From IMG/VR virus record IMGVR_UViG_3300043432_000237, positions 1 to 64,000 of that record: a DNA stretch of 64,000 nt; one strand, 5' to 3'. The notes under the pieces were generated by a model. The model was not told the DNA's origin. It searched no databases and worked only from the letters and a program-made list of their open reading frames with translations. Origin of the DNA: a virus (lineage: Duplodnaviria > Caudoviricetes). Of the stretch, positions 634 through 53,610 are shown piece after piece (the stretch's first letter is position 1; the number at the start of each line of letters is the position of its first letter). A program made the translations under genes and the position numbers.

Positions 634-959
634 TTGCTTCTCTTCTTGTCGGCTCGCTCGTACTTCACCAGCGCGCTGAGGCCAGCCATCAACTTGTCCA
701 TCTTCTCACCGATCTCAGCTTGCCTGAGTTCCTCGAAAGCGTGAGCGACCTGCAGCGCTGCGCCGTACTTGCGCATGCACATGTCCATCGCTTGCTTGGA
801 GCGCTCTCGTTCTTTGCTTTGGGCACGGGCGGCGACCCACTTGATCACCGCCATCGTGCTGCCGTCTTGGCCAGCCTGGACGCTCGCATCGTAGTCCTTC
901 TGACACGCCCGACAGAGCGTTTCTCCGTAGCCGTCGCAAACGACGCACGACGGCTTCAT
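630..959 (-). CDS. Hypothetical protein with N-terminal CxxC..CxxC
   Basis: ORF coupled to both neighbours by 4-nt overlaps. Confidence 0.6.
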   Translation of the reverse strand: MKPSCVVCDGYGETLCRACQKDYDASVQAGQDGSTMAVIKWVAARAQSKERERSKQAMDMCMRKYGAALQVAHAFEELRQAEIGEKMDKLMAGLSALVKYERADKKRSK

Positions 960-20847: not shown

Positions 20848-21015
20848 ATGTATCGGTGGCGAATGATTCATGCGGTGCTTCCTCAAAACAAGCGGGACCA
20901 GGTCGTCACTGGGTACTCGGAGGTCGACGCCAGGTCCGCGCTAGAGGCGATCGAGAAGTGGCAGTCGCTCAAGCAGCCGAGTTGGCATCTGGTTGACATG
21001 GAGGTCGCGTGCTGA
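20848..21015 (+). CDS. Small hypothetical protein (55 aa, missing from the ORF track)
   Basis: Hand-translated MYRWRMIHAVLPQNK...; fills the gap between dnaB and the SGNH gene. Confidence 0.4.
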   Translation: MYRWRMIHAVLPQNKRDQVVTGYSEVDARSALEAIEKWQSLKQPSWHLVDMEVAC

Positions 21016-21554
21016 GCCGCCGAGCGTTCCTGTTGGCCAGCTTGTCGGCTGCGGTAGTCGACGCCGCTCCGCCCCCGCGCACAGCCGTGCTGCTGCTGGG
21101 CGACTCGTTGGCCTTTCAGCTGGGGCCCCCGCTGTGGCGCCAAGCGCGCGAGGTCAAGCAGCGCGTGCACGTACGCGCGCACGGCGGCAGCAGCGCCCGC
21201 CAGTGGATCCAGCGCCGGTGGGTATCTCGGGCGGCGTCGTCGGTGCGAGCTGAGCGCGTGCTGGTCAGCCTGGGCGTGAACTGCACGCGCTCCGAGCGTC
21301 CGCGCTTGGCGCAGGACATTGCGACCATCGTCGACATCATCGCCGATCTGGGCGCTCCCACCCTGTGGCTGTTGCCGCCACCGCTGCGCTTCTCGACCGA
21401 GTACCTGGTGCAGGCCGTCAGTGAGGCCGGCGTCCCGAGCTTCGCACCAGGCCCGCTTCCGATGGAAAGCGATGGCGTGCACCCAACCTATCGCGGCCAG
21501 CAACGCTGGGCGCAGCTGCTGGTAGCTCACCTCTGGGGAAGGAACGAACAATGA
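21009..21554 (+). CDS. SGNH/GDSL hydrolase with Tat-like signal peptide
   Basis: SRRAFL signal; LLGDSL, SLGVN, DGVHP. Confidence 0.8.
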   Translation: MLSRRAFLLASLSAAVVDAAPPPRTAVLLLGDSLAFQLGPPLWRQAREVKQRVHVRAHGGSSARQWIQRRWVSRAASSVRAERVLVSLGVNCTRSERPRLAQDIATIVDIIADLGAPTLWLLPPPLRFSTEYLVQAVSEAGVPSFAPGPLPMESDGVHPTYRGQQRWAQLLVAHLWGRNEQ

Positions 21555-25185: not shown

Positions 25186-25509
25186 ATGAACCTCATCCGC
25201 CTGTTCATGGTGCTGCTGGTGTCTGTCTTCTGCCTGGGCGCGTCGTGCTCCGACGTCAAGCCAGTGCTGCCGCGCGCGCTCGATGTCGCCGAGCAGCTCT
25301 GTCTGTTGCTCAGCGCTGAGCAGAAGCCCGGACTGAGTCCGCGCGAGGTCGCCGAGCAGCTCTGCAAGACCGAAGCTCAGCTCCGCCCGTTTCTGGACTA
25401 CGTGCTGCGCGCGAAGCAGCTGGGCGTGAGCACGGCCGAGCCGGCTACCACGGTGACGGTGACGGTGGTCAGCCCGGACGCGGCAGTGCTGGACGGTCCG
25501 GCAGAATGA
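25186..25509 (+). CDS. Putative lipoprotein
   Basis: Hydrophobic signal ending LGASC. Confidence 0.6.
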   Translation: MNLIRLFMVLLVSVFCLGASCSDVKPVLPRALDVAEQLCLLLSAEQKPGLSPREVAEQLCKTEAQLRPFLDYVLRAKQLGVSTAEPATTVTVTVVSPDAAVLDGPAE

Positions 25510-26285
25510 TCTCGACGCTCGTGCGCGGCGCGCTGGGGCGCCGCGGAACCGGGTACCGTTTCCCGACCTACCCGTCCGCGCGGGAGACGCCAGACTTCGC
25601 CAAGCTCGGGTTGCCCTCGCGCGAGTTGCCCGAGAGCTTCTCGTTGCGCGAGTACGTCGTGGAGGTGTTGGACCAGGGCCCGACCAATTCGTGCGTCGCC
25701 CAGGCCATCGCCCAGGCCATGCGCATCCAGCGCGCCTTCCGCGATGAGCCCGCCCCGCTCTACTCGCCGCTCTTCTTCTACTTCAACGGCCGCGCGCGCA
25801 CCGGCGACGAGCGCTTCGATGACGGCACCTACGTGGCCTCGACGTTCGACGGCATCCTCGACAAGGGGATGACCGAAGAGAAGTACTGGCCGTTCAACAG
25901 CTGGAAGGTCAACCGTCGACCCAGCTGGAACGCCTATCGCATGGCCGCCGACAGCTCGCAGATCAAGGGCTGGTACCGCGTGTACGACGACGACGCAGAC
26001 GCCTTGCTGCTCGCGATCAAGTCGGCCGTGCATGCAGGTCGTCCGGTCGTGGCGGGCTGGCGCGTGAACAAGACTTTCCTCGACGATCGCGGCCCTGCCG
26101 TCGTCGAGAATCCCAGCGGATCGATGGCCGGTGGTCACGCAATGGTCGTGACCGGCTGGGATGGCGACAACATCGAAGTGCTGTCATCGTGGAGTTCAAG
26201 ATGGAGAGACGGCGGATACGTTTTGCTCAGTCCCGACTACGCGGCGCGCTGCACCGAGGCTACGGTGCTGGACTTGCGATCCTGA
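25506..26285 (+). CDS. Papain-like cysteine peptidase (C1A family)
   Basis: DQGPTNSCVAQA, GGHAMVVTGW, SSW in place of NSW, W..GGY. Confidence 0.88.
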   Translation: MISTLVRGALGRRGTGYRFPTYPSARETPDFAKLGLPSRELPESFSLREYVVEVLDQGPTNSCVAQAIAQAMRIQRAFRDEPAPLYSPLFFYFNGRARTGDERFDDGTYVASTFDGILDKGMTEEKYWPFNSWKVNRRPSWNAYRMAADSSQIKGWYRVYDDDADALLLAIKSAVHAGRPVVAGWRVNKTFLDDRGPAVVENPSGSMAGGHAMVVTGWDGDNIEVLSSWSSRWRDGGYVLLSPDYAARCTEATVLDLRS

Positions 26286-33392: not shown

Positions 33393-34694
33393 ATGCTGAG
33401 GATGTTCAACAACCTGGGCTGGTCTCCGACAGACGTCGCTGACCTCGTCTTTTGGGGTGACGCCTCCAAGGAGCTGCCCGGAGCAAGCGTGCTCTTCACA
33501 GACCGAAGCGGCAGTGGCAACCATGCTGTGGGTACCGGGACCGTGGGCACAACCGTGCAAAACGGTCTGCGCACGATGCGGTTCAACGGCACCACGGATA
33601 AGTTCGCCACACCCAACGTCGACTGGACCGCGGTCAACGCCTTCACGATCTGCACGGTGTTCAAGTCGAACAGTGTCGCCGTGGACCAAGCCATTTGCAC
33701 GAAGGGCTACAGCGGATACCCGTTTGCGTCAGAGGGGACGATGTTTTACATCGACACCTCTGTGTCTGCCGAGGTGAAGGGGGCGCAGTACAGCGCCGGC
33801 AACAACTTCAACGTCAAGGATCTGGACGCGGACAACGGACAGAGTTTTGCTGTGCGCTCGCAGCGCGTAAATCGAGCGTTGGCCGCAGCGTACCAGCAGA
33901 GCTTCACGCGCGATGGTGGCATCTGTTACGACCCGGTCACCTTTGGTGGCACCGCTGCGGCAGCCGGCCTCGGGAACAGCCCGATCTACATCGGCGTGCA
34001 CGGCAACGGGACCAACATCCCGCTCTCGGGAGACATCGCAGAGATCCTGATCTTCTCGCGTCGTCTGACCGACGACGAGCTGCGTCGGGTCGAAATGTAC
34101 TTGGGCATCAAGTGGGCGTTGCCGTACCGCTCCATCTATCCGCTCGGCAACTCCATCACGTACGGAGACGTGAACGACGGGTGGCGAGGCCCACTGATGG
34201 ACTCGAACCTGATCACGCTGGTCTCGCGAGGAAATCTCCTCGCCCCGGGCGTCTACCATCACGAAGGACACCCGGGTGCGGCGATTGCGTTCATCGACGC
34301 CAACATCACTGGCTACTGGAACTCTGCCCGAGGCAGAGAAATCCTGCTGACCATCGGCACCAATGACGCGCTTACTCCTGGTTTGCGCGCTGGCATGCTG
34401 GCTGCCTACGACACGCTGCTCAACACGATCGACGCGCTCTCGCCTGCGCCGTCGATCGTCTGGTGCGCGACGCTCACGCCCCTGGGTGACGCGCCGAGCG
34501 ACGCTGCGGTCAACACCTTCAATGCGGGTCTGCCAGCGGTGGTCGCCGGACACCCCAAGGCTCGCTACGTGGACGTAGGCTCGTGTCTGACCGTGGCTGA
34601 CCTGGCGGACTTCATCCACCCGACGCCTGCCGGATTCTTGAAGATGGGCCAGCGTTGGGCCAACGTCCTGAACGGCCTGGTCATCCCGCCCTGA
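33393..34694 (+). CDS. LamG/ConA-like lectin domain fused to an SGNH hydrolase
   Basis: WGDAS..DRSGSGNHA...SGDIAEILIFSRRL; GNSIT, IGTND, DFIHP. Confidence 0.8.
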   Translation: MLRMFNNLGWSPTDVADLVFWGDASKELPGASVLFTDRSGSGNHAVGTGTVGTTVQNGLRTMRFNGTTDKFATPNVDWTAVNAFTICTVFKSNSVAVDQAICTKGYSGYPFASEGTMFYIDTSVSAEVKGAQYSAGNNFNVKDLDADNGQSFAVRSQRVNRALAAAYQQSFTRDGGICYDPVTFGGTAAAAGLGNSPIYIGVHGNGTNIPLSGDIAEILIFSRRLTDDELRRVEMYLGIKWALPYRSIYPLGNSITYGDVNDGWRGPLMDSNLITLVSRGNLLAPGVYHHEGHPGAAIAFIDANITGYWNSARGREILLTIGTNDALTPGLRAGMLAAYDTLLNTIDALSPAPSIVWCATLTPLGDAPSDAAVNTFNAGLPAVVAGHPKARYVDVGSCLTVADLADFIHPTPAGFLKMGQRWANVLNGLVIPP

Positions 34695-34753: not shown

Positions 34754-35287
34754 ATGCAAAACCGCCTGGAGCTGTCGCCGCCAACCGTGACGCGCCCCTT
34801 CCGCGGGCCCGAGGACACCGTGCGCGAAATGGTGCGCGCGGTGCTGGGGCCGCGAGGCGAGCGCTCGATGCTGGTGCGCACGATGACCGAGCAGTGCGTG
34901 CACCTGCTGCAGGACAAGGACTACCAGAGCGAGCTAATCGCCATCCGCAACTTCGTCGCCACCAAGGGTCGTTACACCAACGACTCACTGGGCGTCGAGG
35001 TGGTGAAGGATCCGCAGCGCCAGGTGGAAGAGATCCTGGCCCGCGGTGTGACCGTCGGCGACTGCGACGACTGCGCCACGCTGATTGCCACCATGTGCCG
35101 CCAGGTGGGCCGCGAGGCCGAGTTCGTGACGGTGGGCTTCGGCTCCCCGAACACCTACTCGCACGTGTTCACGCGCGTGCGCGAGCCCAAGAGCAAACAG
35201 TGGATCGTGCTGGACACGGTGGCGGGTAGCGACGAAGCCAAGATGCTCCGTCGGGTGACGACCTGGCGAGCATGGAGGATTGACTGA
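34754..35287 (+). CDS. Transglutaminase-like (papain-fold) Cys protease
   Basis: GDCDD, YSHVF, WIVLD: Cys-His-Asp triad. Confidence 0.85.
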   Translation: MQNRLELSPPTVTRPFRGPEDTVREMVRAVLGPRGERSMLVRTMTEQCVHLLQDKDYQSELIAIRNFVATKGRYTNDSLGVEVVKDPQRQVEEILARGVTVGDCDDCATLIATMCRQVGREAEFVTVGFGSPNTYSHVFTRVREPKSKQWIVLDTVAGSDEAKMLRRVTTWRAWRID

Positions 35288-37485: not shown

Positions 37486-38937
37486 ATGGCGTTCTATCGG
37501 GTGCTGGTGGCAGAAAACGGTCGCATGCGCGAAGCAGGCGAGGTGCGCCTTGTGGAGCGTGCCAGCAACGCCGAGCTGGAGCGCGTGCTCGCCGACATAT
37601 CAGTCTTCGCGCCCCGGGGACAAGACCGAGTGAAGTGGACCGCAGAGGGCGCCACCATCACGGATGCGCACGGCGACCTGGTGGTACTGAAGAAGGTGGA
37701 GCGCATGAAGGCCAATGCAATGCGGATCCGTAAAGACTGTGCGCACTGTGGTCACCACATGTCGGCGCACCGGTACGACCCGGCAGTGCGCGGCGGTCCG
37801 CAACGCTGCTCTGTGCATGGGTGCCGCTGCACGGTGTTCGAGCGCGCAGCGAAGGGCGCGAGGAAAGTGAAGTTGGAGGCCAACGTGCGCAAGCAGCACT
37901 TTGCTGGGTACGACTTTTCCTCGGGTCCCGAAGGAACGGTAGTGCATCGTCCGCATGCGTCAGAGCTGCGCAGCGGCGATCGGGTCAAGTACAAGGACGT
38001 GAACCTGACCGACCAGGGCACAGTCGTATCGGCATCCGGTAAGTGGGCAGAGGTGCGTTGGGACCGATACCCGAACACTGCCACCAGAGAGTGGGCAGAC
38101 AATCTGAAAGTAGTGTCTCAGATGAACCGAAACTCACGTCACGCTCAGCTCGACTCGCGCACGCGCGAGATCGCCGAGACCGCTCCCATCCTGAACGACG
38201 GCGAGTTCGACTGGAAGGGCGAGGAGGGGCTGCTGCGCATCTGGATGGGCCAGCACGCTCCGACCTTCCTGTACTACTTCGGCAGCAGCGTCGAGGACGC
38301 TTTCGAGGAAGCGGTCGAATGGGCCGATGACCACGCTCCGGGCTTGCTGTTTATGCTGGGGCTCGAAGAGTACAAAGGAGCGGCCGAGGACGAGGGCATC
38401 GAGTGGAACGACGCCTGGCCGGACTTCGAGGACCCGGACTTCCAGCGAGTGGTCGATGCTGCCGAAGCAGACATGACTATCATCGGGCACACCACGCTCA
38501 AGAACGGCAATGCGGTACCAAGCTGGGAGTGGGGAGTCGACGAGATCCACGGCGAGGAGCGCGAGATCGTGACCGCGCGCGCCGCGCCGTACACGTACCG
38601 CATGACCTACGAGATCGTGACCCCGGAGAGCGCCGAAGATGGTGACGCCGCGGAGCGTGGGTGGGAAGTCGAGGAGCCCGCCGGACCCTTCTCACTCGAA
38701 GACCTCGTGCGGGAGGTCAACGATCACACCTGGGTCGAGTGGTCGAACAGCAACCCCACGGGCCAACGGGGCGAGTGGCTGATCAGCGAAGCGGAGCAGA
38801 ACTACTCCACCGGCGAAGACACCAGCTACCACCTGTTCATCGAACGGGTGGACGGGAAGCCGCTTTCCACGGCAGAGATCAAGGACATCAGCAAGGCGCT
38901 CGGTGTCTCGACGTTCGGCATGATGTTTCGGACCTGA
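37486..38937 (+). CDS. Modular polyprotein-like protein (Zn finger, SH3/KOW-like and acidic modules)
   Basis: CAHCGH..H..CSVHGCRC; LRSGDRVKY..GTVV..AEVRWD; modules separated by MKAN, LEAN, MNRN. Confidence 0.65.
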   Translation: MAFYRVLVAENGRMREAGEVRLVERASNAELERVLADISVFAPRGQDRVKWTAEGATITDAHGDLVVLKKVERMKANAMRIRKDCAHCGHHMSAHRYDPAVRGGPQRCSVHGCRCTVFERAAKGARKVKLEANVRKQHFAGYDFSSGPEGTVVHRPHASELRSGDRVKYKDVNLTDQGTVVSASGKWAEVRWDRYPNTATREWADNLKVVSQMNRNSRHAQLDSRTREIAETAPILNDGEFDWKGEEGLLRIWMGQHAPTFLYYFGSSVEDAFEEAVEWADDHAPGLLFMLGLEEYKGAAEDEGIEWNDAWPDFEDPDFQRVVDAAEADMTIIGHTTLKNGNAVPSWEWGVDEIHGEEREIVTARAAPYTYRMTYEIVTPESAEDGDAAERGWEVEEPAGPFSLEDLVREVNDHTWVEWSNSNPTGQRGEWLISEAEQNYSTGEDTSYHLFIERVDGKPLSTAEIKDISKALGVSTFGMMFRT

Positions 38938-38940
38938 GGA

Positions 38941-39546
38941 ATGACTATGCAGATGCCCGGCTACCCTCCTGGAGTTCCCAACCCGCTCGTGCGGCACGTG
39001 CACCCGTACCCCACGCGCTTCCATGGCACGATCTACACGCGCCCGGTGTTCGGGCTGCCGTACGTGCTCAGCCCGGGCAACGTCGCCATGCCGGGTGAGA
39101 TCGCCGGCCTGGGCGACTACAACGTGGGCCAGGGCGTGTTCCGCCCGGGCGGCTACGGCGGCGGCGTGTTCGACGGCAACCTCGCGGGACTCGGAGCCAC
39201 GGATCCGGTGGCGGCGGCCCAGACCAACCTCACCCAGCTGCAAGCCACCATTTCGGCGCTGGCGTCCCAGATGGCGTCGGTGACGCCCAACCAGGCCGCT
39301 CTGCTGGCAGAGCAGATCGCTGCGCTGCAGAAGCAGGAGACCGCGCTCAAGGCGGAGATCAAGAAGCTGCAGAGCGTGCCGAAGGTGCCCGTGTCGTTCT
39401 CGCCTCCAGTGGCCGCTCCGCCGGTGCAGACGGCGCCAGTCGAGTCGCTGATGGTGCCCAGCGACAACAAGTGGGTCATGTTCGTGGTGGGTGGCGGAAT
39501 CGCCATCGGTGCGCTGATCTACCTCAAGAAGAAGAAGAAGATCTGA
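38941..39546 (+). CDS. Tail-anchored membrane protein with short coiled coil
   Basis: IAGLGDY, LAGLGAT, GVF motifs; TM followed by KKKKK. Confidence 0.75.
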   Translation: MTMQMPGYPPGVPNPLVRHVHPYPTRFHGTIYTRPVFGLPYVLSPGNVAMPGEIAGLGDYNVGQGVFRPGGYGGGVFDGNLAGLGATDPVAAAQTNLTQLQATISALASQMASVTPNQAALLAEQIAALQKQETALKAEIKKLQSVPKVPVSFSPPVAAPPVQTAPVESLMVPSDNKWVMFVVGGGIAIGALIYLKKKKKI

Positions 39547-39980
39547 TGTACGTCTCGCTCGGAGCCGAGCTGCAGCACTTGCCACTGCCGGGACTCTCCA
39601 GCGGTGGCTCGTGCAGTATGGCGTCCAACGCCTACAGCGTGTTGACCGGTCGCGTGCAGGATGCCTTGGCCGAAGAAGGCGCCTCGCTGATCTCGGACGG
39701 CATCTGGAGCAAGCGCACCTGTGCGGGCTGGTGGCTGGTGATGGAAGAGGCGCCGACCGAGTCGGGCGTGCGCGAGCTGCTGGGCGACTACGTCCCGACG
39801 CAGTGCAAGTCCATCAGCGTGCCCGCCTGCCCGCGCCCGAGCGCGGCCGAGCTGGCGGCGGTCAAGGTCGCCAAGCCGGGCTGGCAGGCCGACATCGGCG
39901 GCAAGCCCTGGAACCTGTGGCTGGTGGGCGGCGTGGTCGCCGTGGCCGCTGCCTTGGCCTACACGCGCCGCAACAAGTAG
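39546..39980 (+). CDS. Tail-anchored protein with degenerate PG-binding-like domain
   Basis: MYVSLG start; VQDAL..DGIWSKRT; TM followed by RRNK. Confidence 0.65.
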   Translation: MYVSLGAELQHLPLPGLSSGGSCSMASNAYSVLTGRVQDALAEEGASLISDGIWSKRTCAGWWLVMEEAPTESGVRELLGDYVPTQCKSISVPACPRPSAAELAAVKVAKPGWQADIGGKPWNLWLVGGVVAVAAALAYTRRNK

Positions 39981-40029
39981 CGGTCGGGATTTTTGCAGCC
40001 GTTGGCTGCCCCGTGATGTACTCGGCCTC

Positions 40030-40671
40030 ATGAGTTTCGGAATTCTCGGAGGTCTGGGAGCAACGGGACTGGGGTCAGCTCCATACCCGGTGTGCTCCTA
40101 CTTCGGCTACGAGTGTCAGCACTGGAACGAGTACCCGCCGGACATTCAGAGCCAGATCATCGCCGCGGCGAAGCAGATCGACGCGAACCTGCAGGCGCAG
40201 TACGCGACCATCCGCAACGACGGCGGCTGCGACGCCAACGTCTCGGGTCGTCTGGCTGGCGCGCTCAAGGAGAAGCTGATCAAGTCCGGTGGTGATCCGG
40301 CCAAGATGAGCGCGGACGACTCCAGCTTCGGCCCCAAGGAGTGCGCCGAGTGGTGGAGGATCTACGACCGCGGCGTGACCATGGACGACGTGCTGGCGGT
40401 CAGCACGGCCGTGCTGGGCGGCGTGAAGGCGTCGGTCCAGACGATCTGCCAAAACAAGATCACGCTGCCGACCTGCGTGAAGCCGCCGCCGCCGCCGCCC
40501 CCCGGCGGTGGCAGCAGCAGCGGTGGCGGTGGTGGCGGAGTGATCCTGCCGCTGCCCATGCCGGCCAAGCCCAAGGTCAGCTACGCCAACCTGCTGGTGA
40601 CGGGCGGCGTGGTTGCCGCCGTCAGCGTGACGGGCTACTTCGTGGCGAAGAAGAAAGGCTGGCTCAAGTGA
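40030..40671 (+). CDS. Tail-anchored protein, paralogue of 39546..39980
   Basis: LGGLGATGLG leader; DSSFGPKECAEWW; TM followed by KKKG; promoter-like TTGCAG-N18-TGTACT upstream. Confidence 0.7.
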   Translation: MSFGILGGLGATGLGSAPYPVCSYFGYECQHWNEYPPDIQSQIIAAAKQIDANLQAQYATIRNDGGCDANVSGRLAGALKEKLIKSGGDPAKMSADDSSFGPKECAEWWRIYDRGVTMDDVLAVSTAVLGGVKASVQTICQNKITLPTCVKPPPPPPPGGGSSSGGGGGGVILPLPMPAKPKVSYANLLVTGGVVAAVSVTGYFVAKKKGWLK

Positions 40672-41039
40672 AGCGAGTCAACGTGGACGTGAGCAACTTT
40701 CGCGGCCCGCTCGATCCGGTGCCGTTCGCGGGGCTGGGTGCAGCGGCGCCCGGCTGGCCGGGTGGGCGCTCCTACTGGAACGTCTCGAACTTTCGCGCTC
40801 CCTACGACACCGGCCGGTTCAACGCGAGCCTGATGGGCCTGGGCGCGACGCAGGTGGCCGTGCCGCCGAGCGCGCTCTTGCCACCGCGCTTCCAGGAGTA
40901 CCTCGCCACGGGCGCCCCGATGCGCTCGGTCGTGGGCGCCGTGCAGCCCGCGCTCTGCCAGATCCCGCGCTGGGCCTGGGCGCTGATTGCCGCAGGCGCC
41001 GGCTACGCCGCCTATCGGGCGTTCAAGCCCAAGACCTGA
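40668..41039 (+). CDS. Tail-anchored protein with internal peptide repeat
   Basis: VSNFR.P.D...GLGA twice; C-terminal TM. Confidence 0.65.
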   Translation: MKRVNVDVSNFRGPLDPVPFAGLGAAAPGWPGGRSYWNVSNFRAPYDTGRFNASLMGLGATQVAVPPSALLPPRFQEYLATGAPMRSVVGAVQPALCQIPRWAWALIAAGAGYAAYRAFKPKT

Positions 41040-41049
41040 GAGAGCGACC

Positions 41050-41871
41050 ATGGGAAGCCTACAGGCACTTGCGTCCAAGTTCGTGATGGATCCGCCGCCG
41101 GATGACCCGGCAGGTCGGCTGCAGTTCCTTGCTCAGCATCTGCAGTACGTCGAGCAGATCATCGCGAAGCTGCCGCTGCCCGGCTACATCGCGGAGGATC
41201 AGGCGCTCCGCGACATGAACTCCGTGCGCGATCTGCTGGACAAGCTCAAGGACGTGACGGTGTCCACGGCTTTCCAGCTGCCCGGCGACGTGATGCGCAA
41301 CGTGATCCTGGGTCTCTGGCACGTCTGCAACTACGGCGTGAAGGTGCACTCTCCGGAGTGGCGCCAGCTGGCGCTGACCAACAAGGTCATGACGGCCGCC
41401 GAGCTGGAGCAGGACTACCTGGCGCGCCTGGGTGTGATGCAGGTGATCATCCGCATCCAGCAGTCGGGCGCGCTCAATCCGCTGTTCGCGAAGAAGGGTT
41501 CGATCACCTCGCTGGGTGAGCCCATCACGACCATCGCCATCGTCGCCATCGTCGCCACCGCCGTGGTGCTCGTCGCGCTGGGCTACGCGCTGATGCAGTG
41601 GACGGTGCTGTCCCTGAACAACAAGAAGATCCTGGACCGCCTGGACAAGATCTGTTTTGACTCGCAGGGGCGACCCATCGAGGCTGTCAAGGCCGACTGC
41701 GTGAAGGCCTACCAGGATGCCAACGACAAGCTCAACACGCAGGGCCCCAAGAACCCGATCGAAGACCTGGTGAAGTACGCGGCCATCGGTGGCGCCGTGT
41801 ACCTGGGCGTGCTGTTCCTGCCTGACATCGTGCGCACGCTGCGCGAGACCCGCGCTGCGTCCAAAGCCTGA
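41050..41871 (+). CDS. Two-TM membrane protein
   Basis: SLGEP followed by long hydrophobic ITTIAIVAIVATAVVLVALGYALM; second TM near the C-terminus. Confidence 0.7.
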   Translation: MGSLQALASKFVMDPPPDDPAGRLQFLAQHLQYVEQIIAKLPLPGYIAEDQALRDMNSVRDLLDKLKDVTVSTAFQLPGDVMRNVILGLWHVCNYGVKVHSPEWRQLALTNKVMTAAELEQDYLARLGVMQVIIRIQQSGALNPLFAKKGSITSLGEPITTIAIVAIVATAVVLVALGYALMQWTVLSLNNKKILDRLDKICFDSQGRPIEAVKADCVKAYQDANDKLNTQGPKNPIEDLVKYAAIGGAVYLGVLFLPDIVRTLRETRAASKA

Positions 41872-41884
41872 GGAGCATCCAGTC

Positions 41885-42223
41885 GTGATCTACTCACAGT
41901 GGAAGCCCGACACGGGGCGCTACGAGTACTACGAGTCGGCCGAGCGCTACGCGCGCGGCGACGATCTGCCGGTGCCGCGCCTGCGTGCCACCTCTCCAAT
42001 CGGTGTGCCCAGCACCGAGATCGGTCGCACGCCGACCCAGGCTCTGCGGCGCGTGGGCGAGGGCGAGCATGCCCGCGGCATGATCCTGCCGCTCAGTCGC
42101 GTGGGGCTGCTCGGCAGCACGACGCTCGACAGCATCCCGACCTGGGTGTGGGTGGGGCTGGGCGTGGCGGCGGGGTACGTCTTGTCGCGTCCCATCGCCA
42201 AGATGCTGAGGAGCGCGCTGTGA
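41885..42223 (+). CDS. Tail-anchored protein
   Basis: GAGGAG SD; YSQW.P..GRYEYYE; C-terminal TM. Confidence 0.65.
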   Translation: MIYSQWKPDTGRYEYYESAERYARGDDLPVPRLRATSPIGVPSTEIGRTPTQALRRVGEGEHARGMILPLSRVGLLGSTTLDSIPTWVWVGLGVAAGYVLSRPIAKMLRSAL

Positions 42224-42795
42224 GTCGACGCTACGTCGTCAACCGCGCCGAGTCGTTCGAGGCGGCCAAGCGCATCCGGGAGACGTTCCAGGACGCCCCC
42301 ATGCGCCGGCAGACCCCTGTGCCCTGGCAGTGGCCGAGCAGCATGCAAGAGGTGGGGATCTGCATTGGCGTCATGTACGCCTCCAACAAGTGGCAGTCCA
42401 ACCCGCGCACGCTGGTCGACTACAAGCACCTTGCCGAAGGTCCGCAGCGCCTCTACGTGCGCCGCGGTTTTCTGCGCGAGCACAAGACTCCCGAGCGCCA
42501 GCTGCGCGTCTGTGGCCCGATGGTGCCGCTCGACAAGCCGATGCCCACCGCGTTCGCGGAGCTGGCCAAGATCTTGGGCATCCAAGCCCAGCTCTATCAG
42601 GGCACCAACGAGCGCTTCGTGGTGCCCGAGGGCGACGAGCACATCTACCAGGTCAACATTCCCCGCGCGCACCTGGGGGCGGCCAAGCACCCCAAGACAG
42701 GTGAGACGTTCTTGCTGGTCTACAACGCCGACGGTGTTCACTGCATCATCTGCGGTGATGAGCTGGACGTCGAGAAGGACGGCATCGTGGGATGA
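42220..42795 (+). CDS. Hypothetical soluble protein
   Basis: GAGGAG SD; YVVN leader motif; DYKH. Confidence 0.65.
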   Translation: MSRRYVVNRAESFEAAKRIRETFQDAPMRRQTPVPWQWPSSMQEVGICIGVMYASNKWQSNPRTLVDYKHLAEGPQRLYVRRGFLREHKTPERQLRVCGPMVPLDKPMPTAFAELAKILGIQAQLYQGTNERFVVPEGDEHIYQVNIPRAHLGAAKHPKTGETFLLVYNADGVHCIICGDELDVEKDGIVG

Positions 42796-43106
42796 GCTAC
42801 GTCGTGGCCCGCCCGCAGAAGAGCCTCGGCGTCGTCCCGGGAGGACAGAACTTGTGGCTTGGACTCGCACTGTCAGTGGTCCTGCTGTACGTGTTCCGCG
42901 CGGAGCTGTTCGGTGGTGTGTCCACCGCGGGCTGGTACGTGGAGCTGTACGAGTATCCGGTGGGCCACCGGGAGCGTCGCATCAAGCTGGTGGAGGGACC
43001 GTTCGAGAGCAAGCGTGAGGCGAACGAAGTCGCGCGCGAGAACGACGACGTCTGGTATCCGCGCGTGGTCTACCGTGAGCGCGCGTACACGGAAGAGGAC
43101 TTCTGA
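42792..43106 (+). CDS. Small membrane protein
   Basis: MSY..KSLG leader, TM, GPFESK.EA domain. Confidence 0.6.
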   Translation: MSYVVARPQKSLGVVPGGQNLWLGLALSVVLLYVFRAELFGGVSTAGWYVELYEYPVGHRERRIKLVEGPFESKREANEVARENDDVWYPRVVYRERAYTEEDF

Positions 43107-44209
43107 TGGCCTACACCGCAATGAACCTGCAACCGATGGGCAAACAGATCATTGCCCGCGGCGGTTCGACCGACAGCTCCAGCATGCAGGTCTACGCACA
43201 GACGGCCGGCGCGATCGGTGGCGCCGCGATCTGCGCAGCCAGCGGTGCGGGCGCCGTGGCTGCTTCGATCTGTGCCCAGGTGGGCGGCGCAATCGTCAAG
43301 GTCATCGCGGGCAACATCGGCACCCCGGCCACGTCAGGCAACGCCTACGGCTTGTTCAATTTGTGGAAGGACGCCATGGTGCCGCAGGCGCGCATCGCCC
43401 AGGAGGGTTCGATGGCGGTGCGCGCGTACCTGACCATGCGCGATCAGCTGATCGACGAGCTGGCCCAGCAGCTGCGCCCGTTGCAGTCTGTGGAGTCAGG
43501 TAGGGCCTGGGCCGACGCTCGTCTGAGTCAGCTGGGCTTGCCGCCCGCACCCGTGTTGCCGCAGTGGGCGCCCCGTGACGACCTCTGGCAGGCCTACAAG
43601 GACAACCAGGTCTGGAGCAAGAATCCGCTCGGAGATCCTCCGACGTGGAAGTCGTCGCTGACGACGCCACTCTTCCCGACCAAGAACTACTGCACCTACG
43701 GCGAGATCTGGGGCTACCAGAGTCCGTCCATCAATCAGCTGCGCGACAAGGTCGGGCTGAGCTGCTCAGATCTGTTGTTGCTCTGGCTCTACCCGATGGG
43801 CGCTCCTGCACCGCCGGGTGAGCCGATCAACTGGGCCATGGTGGGCGCCTGGGAGCTGGCGCAGCGCTTCACGCAGCTGAGCATGATCAGTATCCCAGTG
43901 CACCAGGCGAGCGCCGTGCGCGTCGTCCGCCCCGGCGTGAAGGTGACGCAGCTGCCGTACAAGAGTCCGCAGCAGGTCGTGACGGCCACGGTGACTCCGT
44001 CGCAGCATGCCACGCTGTTGGTGCTCAACCTGCAAGAGGCCAGCGCGAAGCTCAAGCAAGAGGTCAAGGCCCGCTTGGCTTCGTCAGCTGCCGTGGCGCT
44101 CGTCCAGCTGCGCACCGAAAGTGATCGCAAGCTCACGTGGGCTGTCGCAGCTGGCGTACTGGGCGTCGGCGCTGCCGGCTACTGGTGGCACCGACGCAGC
44201 AAGCGATGA
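43106..44209 (+). CDS. Membrane protein with Gly/Ala-rich N-terminal hairpin and C-terminal anchor
   Basis: AGAIGGAAICAASGAGAVAASICAQVGG; TM followed by HRRSKR. Confidence 0.7.
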   Translation: MAYTAMNLQPMGKQIIARGGSTDSSSMQVYAQTAGAIGGAAICAASGAGAVAASICAQVGGAIVKVIAGNIGTPATSGNAYGLFNLWKDAMVPQARIAQEGSMAVRAYLTMRDQLIDELAQQLRPLQSVESGRAWADARLSQLGLPPAPVLPQWAPRDDLWQAYKDNQVWSKNPLGDPPTWKSSLTTPLFPTKNYCTYGEIWGYQSPSINQLRDKVGLSCSDLLLLWLYPMGAPAPPGEPINWAMVGAWELAQRFTQLSMISIPVHQASAVRVVRPGVKVTQLPYKSPQQVVTATVTPSQHATLLVLNLQEASAKLKQEVKARLASSAAVALVQLRTESDRKLTWAVAAGVLGVGAAGYWWHRRSKR

Positions 44210-44400
44210 ACGTCTTGCCGCCGCGTTTCCCGTACTTGGGGACCGCACAAAAAGCGAACGCCGGGCGATCACTCCCGGCGCACGCAGCGCCCCACCTGAA
44301 GCAGGCAGGTAGGACATGAACAAGATACACGACCAGTACCTCACGAACCAGGCGCAAATTAGCCTGAAAAATAGGCCTGTCGGGCACGTGTGTGAAAAAT

Positions 44401-44430
44401 TGACGAGCTGCCCGCCTCCCCGCTAGGGTG
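44401..44430 (+). promoter_or_regulatory. Sigma70-like promoter of the core/capsid operon
   Basis: A-tract then TTGACG-N18-TAGGGT in a locally AT-richer intergenic region. Confidence 0.6.
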
Positions 44431-44505
44431 CTCTTCAGTAACGGAATCCCAGGTTGGTCCGGAACCACTTGGCCTGCTCCGCGACAGCGGTGAGGTGTGC
44501 CCAAG

Positions 44506-46287
44506 ATGCCCGGAACCATCGGACGAGCGTTCAAGATCAGCAGCAAGCAGGCGAAGAGCTACGGCTACGCCCGCCCCAACCCTGGCGTGACGGCCATCGC
44601 CGCCGTCAACGGCCGCGGGTCCTACACCGCGCGCACGGCCATGACGGGTCGCAGCGCTGCCGGTCGCCTGTCGCACGCGCGCAACGCGACTCGTCGCCAG
44701 CTGAGCGCGGCCGACCGCGCCGCGTTCGCCAAGCGCATGCGCGACGCGCGCCAGCGCAAGATGACCGGCAACATGTCCCGCTCTGCGGCGGGCAAGAAGA
44801 ACATCAAGCGCGCCATCGCCACCCGTAAGGCATGGGGTCGCAGTCTGCAGCGCGGGCACCGGTATCGCGTCGGCGCCGCCGCTTACGGAAAGTCACCCGG
44901 GGCCGCCAAAAAGCTGTCTCCGGGCGTCTACACAGCAAATCGGAGGACAAGAATGCTCAGGAAAAATCGCACCACCGCACGTCGGCGGGGGCGGGTTCTC
45001 CGGAAGAGCCGCAAGGCGCGCCGGATGACCAGCAACCCGAAGGCGCGTCGCACGACTCGCCGCCGCCGGAAGAAGACCACCGCAGCCGCCGCGCCGAAGC
45101 GCCGCCGTCGGGTGAAGCGCCGCCGCAAGGCGACCGCTCGCAAGACGCCGGTGCGCCGTCGCCGCCGCCGCAAGGCCAAGGCCAGCTCGGCAACCCCGAA
45201 GCGTCGCCGTCGGGTGAAGCGCAAGAGCCGCAAGGCGAGCGCTCGCAAGTCGCCGGTGCGTCGTCGTCGTCGCCGCAAGGCCAAGGCCAGCTCGGCCGCG
45301 CCGAAGCGTCGCCGCCGCGTGAAGCGCCGCAAGGGTCGCAAGGCGAAGGCCATGTCGCCCAACCGTCGCCGCCGGGTGAAGCACCGCCGCAACCGTCGCC
45401 GGTCCGGCCGTCGCCTGGGGATGTTCCGCCGCAATCAGGGCTTCATGACCACCCTCAAGGAGGGCGCGAAGGTCGGCCTGATCGTGTTCGCGGGCGTCGC
45501 GGCCCACAAGGCCGCCACCAAGCTCCTGACCGAGCTGGTGCTGGACAAGTTCCTCGGCGCCGCTGCCACCCCGGCCACCCCGCCGGCTCCGGCCGCGGTT
45601 TCGGGACTCGAAGTCCTGCAGCCCTACAAGAAGATCATCGCGGGCATCGCGGTTGCCGGTCTCGGCAGCTTCGCAGCCAACGCCGTGATCAAGGACCAAG
45701 AGACCAAGAAGTACGCCATCGCCGGCATGTGGGGCTCGCTCCTGCACACCGTCATCGTGGACCTCTTGGCCGCCTTCGGTGGAGCCACCGGTGGCAAGGT
45801 TGCGCAGTACCTGTCGGGCTACGACGACAGCACCGCGTACTCCCTCGGCGCTTCGATCATGCCGATGTACCGCCCCGTGGGCGAGTACTTCGATCAGGGC
45901 ATGGGCGAGTACTTCGAGGGCGCCACGGCCGGTCTCGGCAACTACGGCATGAACGGCGACATCTACCAGGCGCAAGCCGGGTACGGCGCCATGCCGGACT
46001 CGAACTCGGGCCACATCGATCCGTCCAGCGACCTCGACCGCGAGCTGACCCTCGCGGAAGCGGCAGCGGGCGTCGGTGCTCTGCCGTCGTACGAAGCAGC
46101 CGCCGGTCTCGGCGACTTCATCGGCAACGGCCACAAGGCGATCGGGTCGCGTTCCACCTGGATCCCGGGTGAGACGAACCCCGGCACCTGGGCACCGGTG
46201 ACCAGCGTCAGCCGCGGCCAGGCCGCGACGGCCATGGTCCCGGCCGGCATCCTGCAGACCGGTGGAGGCTCGGGCGTCTTCGGCTGA
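44506..46287 (+). CDS. Protamine-like Arg/Lys-rich core protein fused to hydrophobic helices and a motif-rich acidic tail
   Basis: GAGGTG SD; about 300-aa basic region with PKRRRRVK repeats; about three hydrophobic helices; tail with repeated GLG/GMG/GVG. Confidence 0.8.
   Translation: MPGTIGRAFKISSKQAKSYGYARPNPGVTAIAAVNGRGSYTARTAMTGRSAAGRLSHARNATRRQLSAADRAAFAKRMRDARQRKMTGNMSRSAAGKKNIKRAIATRKAWGRSLQRGHRYRVGAAAYGKSPGAAKKLSPGVYTANRRTRMLRKNRTTARRRGRVLRKSRKARRMTSNPKARRTTRRRRKKTTAAAAPKRRRRVKRRRKATARKTPVRRRRRRKAKASSATPKRRRRVKRKSRKASARKSPVRRRRRRKAKASSAAPKRRRRVKRRKGRKAKAMSPNRRRRVKHRRNRRRSGRRLGMFRRNQGFMTTLKEGAKVGLIVFAGVAAHKAATKLLTELVLDKFLGAAATPATPPAPAAVSGLEVLQPYKKIIAGIAVAGLGSFAANAVIKDQETKKYAIAGMWGSLLHTVIVDLLAAFGGATGGKVAQYLSGYDDSTAYSLGASIMPMYRPVGEYFDQGMGEYFEGATAGLGNYGMNGDIYQAQAGYGAMPDSNSGHIDPSSDLDRELTLAEAAAGVGALPSYEAAAGLGDFIGNGHKAIGSRSTWIPGETNPGTWAPVTSVSRGQAATAMVPAGILQTGGGSGVFG
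45094..45400 (+). repeat. Tandem 102-105-nt coding repeat (Arg clusters)
   Basis: PKRRRRVK units begin at 45094, 45196 and 45301. Confidence 0.8.
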
Positions 46288-46468: not shown

Positions 46469-47221
46469 ATGGCAAAAGTAGTTTCCATTCGCGAGCGCGT
46501 TCACCAGCCCTTCTACGACACCCTCGTCCGCACGGCGGGTCTCACGGCCGGTGCGCTCACCGACAACACCTCCCTCTTCACCAGCAACGGTGCACGCACC
46601 GAGGCGACGACCAACCTGATCAACGGCGCCACGCTGCCCTCCGATCAGAGCCACGTCGTGCTCGCGCTCCGCGTCTTCACCTGGTACCGCAACCCGCGCC
46701 TGCGCGTGGCCGGTGCCGGTGCCGGCGAGATCGCGCAGAACGGTGACTACAACTTGCTGGCCCCCTGGCTCGCGGGCGGCGCGGCCGTCGGCCAGGCCCC
46801 CGGTCAGGTGCAGGACGTGTACCGCCTGCACTGGCAGACCGAGGAGCAGCTGCACTGGTCGTTCGGGACCGGGCTCAAGAACTCGATCGACAACATGCCG
46901 ACCTGGTACTTCCCGGCGGGCGGCGGCATCTCGGGCGACATGGGTGGGACGACCGACCTCATCCACTGGCAGAACTCGGGCTACGACGGGCACGCCGGCA
47001 TCCTGCGGCTCGCTCGCGCCGTCCTGATTCCGCCTCGCCAGAACATCCTGTGCCAGGCCAAGGTCTTCGCCCTCCCGAACGCGGGTCAGGCGGTCACCTT
47101 CGGCACGACCCAGGGTGCGCGCGACATGCTCAACCTCCGCGACAACCTGAACGCCATCGACGCGATCGGGAAGTGCGTGATGTTCTGCTTCGACGGCCTC
47201 TTCTCGCGCGACGTTCAGTGA
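46469..47221 (+). CDS. Putative major capsid protein (single jelly roll), 250 aa
   Basis: Strong SD, flanking hairpins, strongly biased codons; QPFYDT..SLF..TNL..GATLP..HVVLALRV...LIPPRQNI...VMFCFDG beta pattern; follows the core-protein gene. Confidence 0.6.
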   Translation: MAKVVSIRERVHQPFYDTLVRTAGLTAGALTDNTSLFTSNGARTEATTNLINGATLPSDQSHVVLALRVFTWYRNPRLRVAGAGAGEIAQNGDYNLLAPWLAGGAAVGQAPGQVQDVYRLHWQTEEQLHWSFGTGLKNSIDNMPTWYFPAGGGISGDMGGTTDLIHWQNSGYDGHAGILRLARAVLIPPRQNILCQAKVFALPNAGQAVTFGTTQGARDMLNLRDNLNAIDAIGKCVMFCFDGLFSRDVQ

Positions 47222-49430: not shown

Positions 49431-50180
49431 ATGGCCCTGGGAGCATATTTCCGAGCAGTCGAGAGTCAGCCGATCCCGGAGCCGCAGCTGGACGGGCTGG
49501 GCTCGCAGGATCAGTTCGCGGTCGAGGCGTTGCAGGAGCTGCTGGAGGCACAGGGTATCCGGCCTGCGGCGGCGATGGCGCCCTGGGGCATCCAGGAGGG
49601 CAGCGTCGACTGGCAAGCCGAGCACCCGGACCACAGCCTGCTGCTGTATCCGATCAGCGATGGCCTGCTGACGCAGGTCGAGAAGTCGACCTTCGGCATG
49701 CCCGTGCCGGCCGTCGCGATCTTGACCACCACGCCCGTCGTGCTGGCCAAGGCGCGCGAGGCCTACGACGATACGCCGTACCGCTTTCACGCCGTCGAGG
49801 GCGTCTACCGCCTGGACGACAAGAAGCCGGTGCCGACGATCTACTTCCTCTACTGGGGTCACTACCGCGAGCCCAACGACAGCGGAGGTGGCCGCTCGGC
49901 GCTGCAGAGCGTCGCGTCCATGCTCGGCGGCTCGCTCGTCTTCCCGTTGCAGCTGCCGCGCACCGGCCAGGAGCGCCAGCACCCGTCGGTGACCTTCCAG
50001 CTCGCCCTGGCGGCGCAGCTGAGCGGCCAGCCGGCGGCAGCGCTGCCGCCGACGGCGGTGCCCAGCGCGCTGGCACCCAGTGCCGCCCCGGCGCCTAGCG
50101 CGGCCTGGTGGCTGCTCCCGGTGGTCGGCGGGCTGGCCGCCTATGGCGGCTACCGCTGGTGGAAAGGACGCAAGAGCTGA
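49431..50180 (+). CDS. Tail-anchored membrane protein
   Basis: MALGAY, LDGLGS; TM followed by RWWKGRKS. Confidence 0.7.
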   Translation: MALGAYFRAVESQPIPEPQLDGLGSQDQFAVEALQELLEAQGIRPAAAMAPWGIQEGSVDWQAEHPDHSLLLYPISDGLLTQVEKSTFGMPVPAVAILTTTPVVLAKAREAYDDTPYRFHAVEGVYRLDDKKPVPTIYFLYWGHYREPNDSGGGRSALQSVASMLGGSLVFPLQLPRTGQERQHPSVTFQLALAAQLSGQPAAALPPTAVPSALAPSAAPAPSAAWWLLPVVGGLAAYGGYRWWKGRKS

Positions 50181-53019: not shown

Positions 53020-53610
53020 ATGGCCAATGAGCTGTTCGAGGCGCTGAGCAAGGTTGCGTTCTCCCTGCAGGGCTTGCCGCGCGGCTCACTGGGTGGCCCG
53101 GTCTGGGAAGAGCTGAAGCCCTGGCTGGAGAAGTTGATGTCACACGCGGCGCCCAAGTGGTTGCCGCGCCTGAGCTTCGCGTTCCCCTGCCAGGTGGCTG
53201 TGCATCGACAGGGCGTGCCCATTGGGCCCTGTCCGCACCGGGCCATCGCGAGCTGCGACGTCTGCGGTGGCGCCTGCTGCCTGCACCACGCGCGCATCGA
53301 CCAGCTGGGCGACGCCATCTGCTACCCGTGCGTGGCGCGCGCTGTGGCGGCACACCGTGGCGGCGGCGCACCTCCGGCGCCCCCTCCGCGCAGCAAGGCA
53401 GAAGAGCTGCGCTGGGCCCGCAAGCTGCTCAAGGTCAAGCCGGAGGACGACTGGGAGACCATCCGCGCGGCGCACCGGCGCGAGAGCGGAAAAACCCACC
53501 CGGACCGGCAGCGCACCGACAAGGCCAAGGCCAAGGCCACCGAGCGCTTCAAGCTGGTGCAGCAGGCGTTCGAGGTGCTCAAGCTCGAACACGGCCCCAA
53601 GACGGGCTGA
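53020..53610 (+). CDS. B-box-like Zn finger plus C-terminal J-domain
   Basis: CDVCGGACCLHH..CYPC; ARKLL.V..IRAAHR..THPDR..FKLVQQAFEVL. Confidence 0.85.
   Translation: MANELFEALSKVAFSLQGLPRGSLGGPVWEELKPWLEKLMSHAAPKWLPRLSFAFPCQVAVHRQGVPIGPCPHRAIASCDVCGGACCLHHARIDQLGDAICYPCVARAVAAHRGGGAPPAPPPRSKAEELRWARKLLKVKPEDDWETIRAAHRRESGKTHPDRQRTDKAKAKATERFKLVQQAFEVLKLEHGPKTG

Follow-up and report, generated by a model that had tools for sequence, protein, structure and literature searches.

The stretch of viral DNA considered here (hereafter the window; 64,000 nucleotides) makes up the opening 64 kb of an IMG/VR record of 125,036 bp (IMGVR_UViG_3300043432_000237) with direct terminal repeats and 66% G+C. 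The element in question is a short asparagine motif, [M/L/Y/F/H]-x-x-N, that recurs in several of the encoded proteins; an original prediction had described it as [MLYF]-x-x-N, and His has been added here. Positions are those of the window unless said to be genome positions.

At ~34.7-57 kb, the window contains a one-directional gene block, the structural block, with many small genes that carry C-terminal membrane segments. The block has almost no Pfam or PHROGs match, and ten open reading frames (ORFs) of the region gave none in either. It is opened by the gene for a 177-residue transglutaminase-fold protein (34754-35287, plus strand), the candidate processing protease. A modular protein of 483 residues (37486-38937, plus strand) consists of an N-domain, a Cys/His module, an SH3-like module and the acidic modules D (~residues 225-356) and E (~residues 368-474); a 191-residue protein is encoded at 42220-42795 (plus strand); and a polybasic protein of 596 residues (44497-46287, plus strand) combines a conserved N-domain, an Arg/Lys-rich arm that reaches ~residue 313 and a hydrophobic, Gly-rich C-terminal domain. 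A second modular ORF, of 671 residues, is found at genome positions 89855-91870.

Motif sites and the polybasic protein family

All motif instances named in the original prediction were found in the sequence. In the polybasic protein (all sites on the plus strand), the first site reads Y-A-R-P-N followed by P-G-V-T (44566-44580), with the hydrophobic residue at -4 in this case. A stretch of seven sites in the basic arm follows (44674-45393), comprising HARN (44674), MTGN (44761), YTAN (44929), LRKN (44956), MTSN (45025), MSPN (45352) and HRRN (45382), which delimit pieces of 9-109 residues with net charges of +5 to +61. FRRN (45424-45435) is placed immediately before the hydrophobic domain, and YGMN (45943-45954), preceded by G-L-G, within the C-terminal domain. 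The series MTGN, YTAN, LRKN, MTSN, MSPN and FRRN had been predicted for the basic region, the last just before the hydrophobic part, and is confirmed in that arrangement.

The number of sites expected by chance was estimated by shuffling each protein (2000 shuffles). With [MLYF]-x-x-N, the polybasic protein is strongly enriched (nine sites vs 2.2 expected, a count reached in 0/2000 shuffles; 11 vs 2.4 with His allowed), whereas the 483-residue ORF, with three sites vs 2.4 expected and no further ones, is not, so that the enrichment check suggested at the outset bears out the former protein and not the latter. The genome-wide excess is ~1.2-fold (184 vs 156). Only the polybasic protein and a small number of modular proteins are enriched, and enrichment is not general in the structural module. 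Across nine related IMG/VR loci and two complete relatives (135 and 179 kb), the polybasic orthologue shows by far the strongest and most consistent excess and is alone in being enriched in each related genome; the only other protein to reach P<0.01 is a large ORF of the 179-kb relative (G002).

A search with the polybasic C-terminal domain yielded 76 homologues, on contigs up to 135 kb, which together contain 625 motifs vs 199 expected; the phage collection gave no relative of the protein. The composition of the motif is apparent from the basic arms of 39 non-redundant homologues (12,149 residues; 25% Arg, 14% Lys). Among the 468 Asn residues with a -3 position, 65.8% have M, L, Y, F or H there against a background of 9.0% (7.3-fold), and among the 426 with full flanks from -6 to +6, M, L, Y or F occupies -3 in 51.6% against 7.8%. 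The coupling is specific to Asn, in that Q, S, T, G, D, E, P, A, K, R, H and V all show at most 1.3-fold (the value for Glu), and specific to the spacing, as all other offsets from -8 to +8 remain below 2-fold. At -3, Arg and Lys are almost excluded and Ile and Val barely enriched; Met is the second commonest residue, while Tyr, Phe and His together fill ~22% of these positions, corresponding to about a third of the motif sites. Arg dominates -6, -5, -2, -1 and +1 to +3, the residue at -1 being R, A, S, K or P and the one after Asn mostly R, G, A, K or P (Gly in 17%), and the median distance between sites is 22 residues.

Two sites of the family are fixed in position. [FMYLH]xxN stands before the hydrophobic domain in 75/76 homologues, mostly followed by G, A or Q, and the Asn of FRRN is invariant in an alignment of 37 sequences. 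A hydrophobic-x-x-N-[PGA] site directly precedes a G-V-T-x-I-A-A-I-N-G block in 22 of the 26 sequences that carry the block, a set that includes the window copy, whose Tyr sits one position further away. In addition, the Tyr and Asn of YGMN are invariant in 37 homologues (consensus G-L-G-x-Y-G-x-N-P-D). On these sequence comparisons, the motif is a selected, position-specific signal and not the product of chance.

Some further observations concern the same proteins. At 45650-46130, in the C-terminal domain, an Asn motif follows G-L-G three times (GLGSFAAN, GLGNYGMN, GLGDFIGN), and orthologues of a 249-residue protein (49431-50180) begin with F-Y-R-N or Y-F-R-N and continue with x-x-S-G-L-G; the Gly and Asn motifs may therefore form one composite signal. 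Many database homologues (P0012, P0018, P0050, P0072 and others) are versions of 327-350 residues starting with M-R-R-N or M-F-R-K-N; the upstream frame is open for >1 kb in related loci, so that the starts of these short versions may be miscalled.

Other origins considered for the motif or for single sites were set aside. A DNA-level origin was rejected because the motif persists, with varying -3 residues, in relatives of 56-70% G+C. For single sites, a 2A-like reading was dropped as NPGP is missing, an intein-like one as H-N followed by C, S or T is missing, and a Tat-signal one as Lys-Lys variants are common.

The motif at module joints and in a leader peptide

The 483-residue ORF carries MKAN (37705-37716, plus strand) at the end of the N-domain, LEAN (37873-37884, plus strand) between the Cys/His and SH3-like modules and MNRN (38122-38133, plus strand) ~20 residues upstream of module D. 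Each of its modules recurs separately in other proteins: HMMER searches of 1.8 billion representative proteins gave 498 that share single modules, many of them stand-alone. The distinct modules of the original prediction are therefore real and recur alone, while the zinc-finger and SH3/KOW labels attached to two of them are without Pfam support, no Pfam family being matched by the ORF at E <= 0.01. A scan of IMG/VR with this ORF alone gave no match, and the phage collection a single weak one, to module E.

Comparison with homologues places the motif at the joints of this family. The counterpart of MKAN in P0086 is MKKN followed by A, P0003 has YDRN followed by A before its Cys/His module, and at the place matching MNRN there are MQRN (P0002), MNAN (P0006), HRPN (P0003) and HTPN (G005). 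Internal copies of module D have a motif within 35 residues upstream in 17/25 cases, against a background of 19%. P0086, the positional orthologue of the 483-residue ORF on a syntenic 31.9-kb contig, has in common with it the N-domain and the MK-x-N end followed by A, then has three other modules and then module D, with every joint reading M/H/L-K-x-N. The shuffling of modules at motif boundaries, which had been proposed as a check, is thus seen. Regarding the three boundaries in the window copy, MKAN at the end of the N-domain and LEAN between modules conform to the original prediction; MNRN falls inside a stretch shared with stand-alone SH3-like homologues and marks no clean edge.

The AlphaFold2 (AF2) model of the ORF is confident for module D only. 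The stretch of residues 116-161, which contains LEAN, has predicted local distance difference test (pLDDT) values below 50; MKAN borders such a stretch, and MNRN falls in a low-confidence helix. Thus, no site is within the confident module D, which agrees with placement in linkers, but the positions of MKAN and MNRN are suggestive rather than proven. The findings named beforehand as contrary to the idea, namely motifs inside folded domains or without conservation in homologues, did not occur. No match was obtained with Foldseek for the AF2 model against the PDB at E <= 0.001, nor a usable one for module D in the ESM Atlas. At the nucleotide level, MKAN starts with ATG and has GGAG five bases upstream (37683-37716), and LEAN starts with a TTG codon and has GAGGA nine bases upstream (37851-37884); both may be fossil or live internal starts.

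A similar pattern is found in the family of the 671-residue ORF, whose match to Pfam is limited to a weak zinc ribbon and whose modules occur in other combinations in related viruses. For its two C-terminal modules and 28 database homologues, a motif lies between -16 and +2 of internal module starts in 26/34 cases, against 19% of windows from the same proteins (P = 6e-13). One joint reads MESN, LREN/HRRN, LEQN, HQRN and FSVN in five virus copies, and another LRPN, FAVN, LTAN and LRRN; the Asn is fixed and the class of the -3 residue kept, while the other positions vary. Single-module versions begin right at the joint. The motif is also found in the acidic linkers of this family and is, therefore, independent of charge context.

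In the 191-residue protein the motif is at the N-terminus. Its GTG start codon is at 42220 and its first residues are M-S-R-R-Y-V-V-N, so that YVVN itself (42232-42243, plus strand; residues 5-8) is present, although it does not start at 42220 as originally stated. Orthologues of 182-192 residues are found in six related loci, and the protein has no Pfam or PDB match. The leader R-R-hydrophobic-x-x-N is kept in 5/6 aligned sequences (the window copy included), with orthologues reading MGRRLLIN, MSRRLIVN, MRRYVAN and ..RRIYTPN. The protein has four copies of the motif, and the three internal ones are not conserved, the Asn being replaced by Asp, Thr or other residues; they thus serve as an internal control for the conserved leader site. 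A small membrane-protein ORF (41789-42223) overlaps the GTG start by four bases (GTGA, 42220-42223), which suggests translational coupling.

Finally, YQRN (1004-1015, minus strand) occupies residues 846-849 of the 864-residue SNF2 helicase (956-3550, minus strand), 15 residues from the end, outside the region covered by the original prediction, which had correctly put it near the C-terminus. In the orthologue of the 179-kb relative, MQAN matches this position and a shared W-A-x-P tail follows, a comparison of two sequences only. The helicase also has an N-terminal DUF6011.

Proposed cutting after Asn and its alternatives

A fixed Asn with a recognition residue at a set distance, in any charge context and at joints, in a leader and before a membrane domain, is the pattern of a protease site. 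We therefore propose, with about even confidence, that the motif marks the site at which an endopeptidase would cut after Asn (P1), that P4 would be taken by His or a bulky hydrophobic residue and P1' in most cases by Arg or a small residue, and that the enzyme would be the transglutaminase-fold protein. The polybasic protein would be a precursor from which cutting frees several arginine-rich peptides of ~10-110 residues; a cut at the invariant FRRN site would release the hydrophobic C-terminal domain, of 283 residues if the arm were cut at all sites; the 483- and 671-residue proteins would be cut into single domains; and the 191-residue protein would lose a leader of eight residues. What the sequences show is the motif with its specificity, its conservation and its place at joints, and the presence of the candidate enzyme in all relatives checked; that the proteins are cut, at which bond and by which enzyme, and any packaging of the products, are inferences. 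The wider picture, in which a transglutaminase-fold, Asn-specific protease makes DNA-condensing, protamine-like peptides from a membrane-anchored precursor and also frees swappable cargo domains, is put forward tentatively, as possible rather than probable. The original prediction had spoken of an Asn-specific processing or packaging signal for internal cargo; the selected, conserved motif at joints agrees with it, while cleavage at Asn, internal cargo and a parallel Gly-based code are hypotheses.

The candidate enzyme is a Cys-His-Asp protein: it matches PF01841 with 34.3 bits (cut-off 23; E = 3e-8), and an alignment of three genomes shows no change at Cys104, His137 or Asp154. It was found, with 50-63% identity, in 8/8 related genomes checked; a sequence search of the PDB gave a single weak match (E = 0.92). 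The genome encodes two further protease-like proteins, a papain-family (C1) peptidase homologue (25506-26285, plus strand; PF00112, 32.2 bits) and a DUF2201 putative metallopeptidase-VWA protein (genome 70798-72042, minus strand). The former was rejected as a family-wide protease, being absent from the complete relatives G002 and G007, and only the transglutaminase-fold gene is present in all eight relatives checked, for which reason it is favoured as the source of the enzyme. Legumain (Peptidase_C13) gave no six-frame match in the genome, while the control responded in Caulobacter; adenain (Peptidase_C5) gave none either, nor did the control genomes. No match was found for the S78 prohead protease (control responding in four genomes) or for S77 (control not responding), and no trypsin- or 3C-like family appeared in the Pfam scan of ~70 proteins, for which no dedicated six-frame search was run. 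In lasso-peptide pathways, the B enzymes have a transglutaminase fold and work as site-specific leader peptidases. The DUF2201-VWA gene adjoins one for a MoxR-like AAA ATPase (the pair spanning genome 70798-74107, minus strand), and the same pair is found in the 179-kb relative.

Several points weigh against cutting by this enzyme. The transglutaminase-fold protein might serve as a cell-wall peptidase instead, like the pseudomurein endoisopeptidases of methanogen viruses, and we know of no Asn-specific endopeptidase that is viral or of the transglutaminase fold. Nor is the motif depleted in the conserved structural proteins. Many database homologues of the polybasic protein start at M-x-x-N, and a cut there, if these are real starts, would remove just four residues. 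In the 483-residue ORF, the D-E joint (~residues 356-367) is free of the motif, and the stand-alone SH3-like homologues P0008 and P0009 have not kept LEAN. Furthermore, the AF2 model of the protein encoded at 46469-47221 reached a pLDDT of 32 and did not yield a capsid fold, so that a 'tailless, membrane-containing' label for the virus gains no support.

The conservation data fit equally well with a signal for docking or assembly that is left uncut, a short peptide to which a capsid, scaffold, membrane or chaperone protein would bind and which would tether the arm and the modules inside the particle. The conserved DnaJ-domain gene within the structural block would be in keeping with such a role, and a site four residues from a true N-terminus would suit a tag better than a cut. 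A tag before every module, with 8-20 copies per basic arm, would, however, be a less economical arrangement than a series of cut sites; modules that stand alone start precisely behind the Asn position, and the small residue after Asn resembles a P1' preference. Docking is therefore judged unlikely, although it retains appreciable weight. The backbone might also break at Asn through a succinimide, no dedicated protease being needed, as in the asparagine peptide lyases (nodaviruses, reovirus mu1 and FlhB/YscU, the last with N-PTH), an idea that takes account of Asn as the sole invariant residue and of the frequent Pro, Gly or Ala after it. This is improbable, given that known sites of this kind are single and embedded in a fold that provides the catalytic groups, whereas the many sites found here are in disordered arginine-rich or acidic linkers and have a strong -3 requirement that points to recognition by a binding pocket.

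Other explanations dispense with recognition by a partner or an enzyme. If separate genes starting with M-x-x-N had been fused in frame, some of the internal starts perhaps being still in use, the frequency of Met at -3 would follow, as would the ribosome-binding sequences (GGAG and GAGGA) at the proper distance from MKAN (ATG) and LEAN (TTG). Tyr, Phe and His, which are not encoded by start codons, are nevertheless found at about one-third of the motif sites in the basic arms, no ribosome-binding sequence accompanies the sites of the polybasic protein and the fixed Asn would be left unexplained, all of which makes such a relic of gene starts hardly probable. The dominance of Arg around Asn in the basic arms has suggested that in the polybasic protein the motif belongs to a DNA-binding unit that occurs repeatedly (R-R-x-hydrophobic-R-R-N-R-R-R), similar to SPKK or AT-hook repeats, and a coincidence elsewhere; but the same two-position signature is present in the acidic or neutral linkers of unrelated modular proteins and in the leader peptide, and we attach a low probability to this idea. 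As to a compositional artefact of a loose four-residue pattern, the lack of excess in the 483-residue ORF and the ~1.2-fold excess over the genome are what it would predict, but a 7.3-fold enrichment over 468 sites, for one residue pair at one spacing, and the P value obtained at module starts make it extremely improbable.

Known systems, lineage and implications

If the proposed cutting is correct, the finding would fall within the consensus-site maturation of virion proteins, with a new residue code. Adenovirus core maturation and the head maturation of T4 and phiKZ appear to be the closest working analogues. The adenovirus protease cuts pVII, pX/mu and pVI at (M/I/L)-x-G-x-G or (M/I/L)-x-G-G-x. 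Both systems have a hydrophobic residue three positions before the (here presumed) P1, although Ile is not favoured in the virus studied here, and both have basic, protamine-like, DNA-associated precursors with several sites and one code on unrelated virion proteins. They differ in that Asn replaces Gly at P1, that P2 lacks Gly, that the enzyme proposed here is of the transglutaminase fold and that the host is presumably bacterial. T4 gp21 cuts at L/I-x-E sites, and phiKZ gp175 likewise carries out consensus-site processing of virion proteins. The likeness lies in a brief consensus, in which a hydrophobic residue precedes an unvarying P1, in short N-terminal leaders and in the multi-site cutting of internal proteins (proposed in the present case). 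In T4 and phiKZ, however, P1 is Glu and the spacing -2, instead of Asn and -3, and neither an S77 or S78 gene nor, among the ~70 proteins scanned, any tailed-phage hallmark gene was found here.

The asparagine peptide lyases, which act in nodaviruses (N-A), tetraviruses (N-F), reovirus mu1 (N-P), and picornavirus VP0 (N-S), share with the proposed system an Asn at the scissile bond and a role in virion maturation, but have a single autocatalytic site in a folded capsid instead of many sites, each recognised by its -3 residue, in linkers, low-confidence regions and an Arg-rich arm. Picornavirus-type 3C proteases, enzymes of RNA viruses with a chymotrypsin fold, recognise Gln at P1 together with a small P1' and a P4 that is hydrophobic or small; the P4 determinant, the amide side chain at P1 and the small P1' would be common features, with Asn here in place of Gln. 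For the modular proteins, a parallel is offered by the polyvalent proteins of phages and conjugative elements, which consist of shuffled, unrelated small domains and are in some cases encoded in late or virion blocks, with processing and delivery as their predicted fate (Iyer et al. 2017, PMC5512222); that paper proposes embedded zincin-like peptidase domains for the processing, and neither uses the word 'linker' nor speaks of a transglutaminase. The modular proteins resemble them in having several unrelated domains per polypeptide that are shuffled between relatives, and differ in that MuF, zincin-like peptidase, ArdC-N, DarA and other hallmark domains were not detected in Pfam scans of the 483- and 671-residue ORFs.

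The virus belongs to an undescribed group of uncultured viruses of 95-180 kb. No relatives were found in 185,579 representative prokaryote genomes, and literature searches returned no description of either the motif or the lineage. The genome codes for DnaB, a DnaC-like loader, a beta clamp, ParB, the SNF2 helicase, an integrase and several sugar enzymes. Directly 3' of the polybasic gene lies the gene at 46469-47221, whose product is the most conserved protein of the lineage (54-82% identity across nine loci) and has no family match; the polybasic gene adjoins this most conserved gene of the structural block in nine related loci. A DnaJ-domain protein (53020-53610; PF00226, E = 4e-10) is a conserved member of the block in related loci. 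Three GDSL/SGNH hydrolase homologues (21009-21554, 33393-34694 and genome 68396-68959), an SLT transglycosylase (genome 68991-69710) and a weak M23 peptidase (genome 114265-114852) look like a large cell-envelope toolkit. At genome 115182-118443 (minus strand), there are three consecutive ORFs of 371-375 residues each, with no family match.

Even without cutting, the motif is a strong and easily searched marker of the polybasic and modular proteins, and the joints, as points of exchange, account for the swapping of modules among relatives. If cutting does take place, DNA-condensing peptides and accessory proteins would be made from precursors with one code, which would predict the mature ends of proteins in a lineage almost without database matches, and a new protease specificity, with Asn at P1, would be at hand for possible practical use. 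Should the transglutaminase-fold protein indeed be the enzyme that makes protamine-like peptides and frees cargo domains, this would amount to an adenovirus-like core maturation in a large, undescribed lineage of bacterial viruses, by means of a specificity that is new for the transglutaminase fold.

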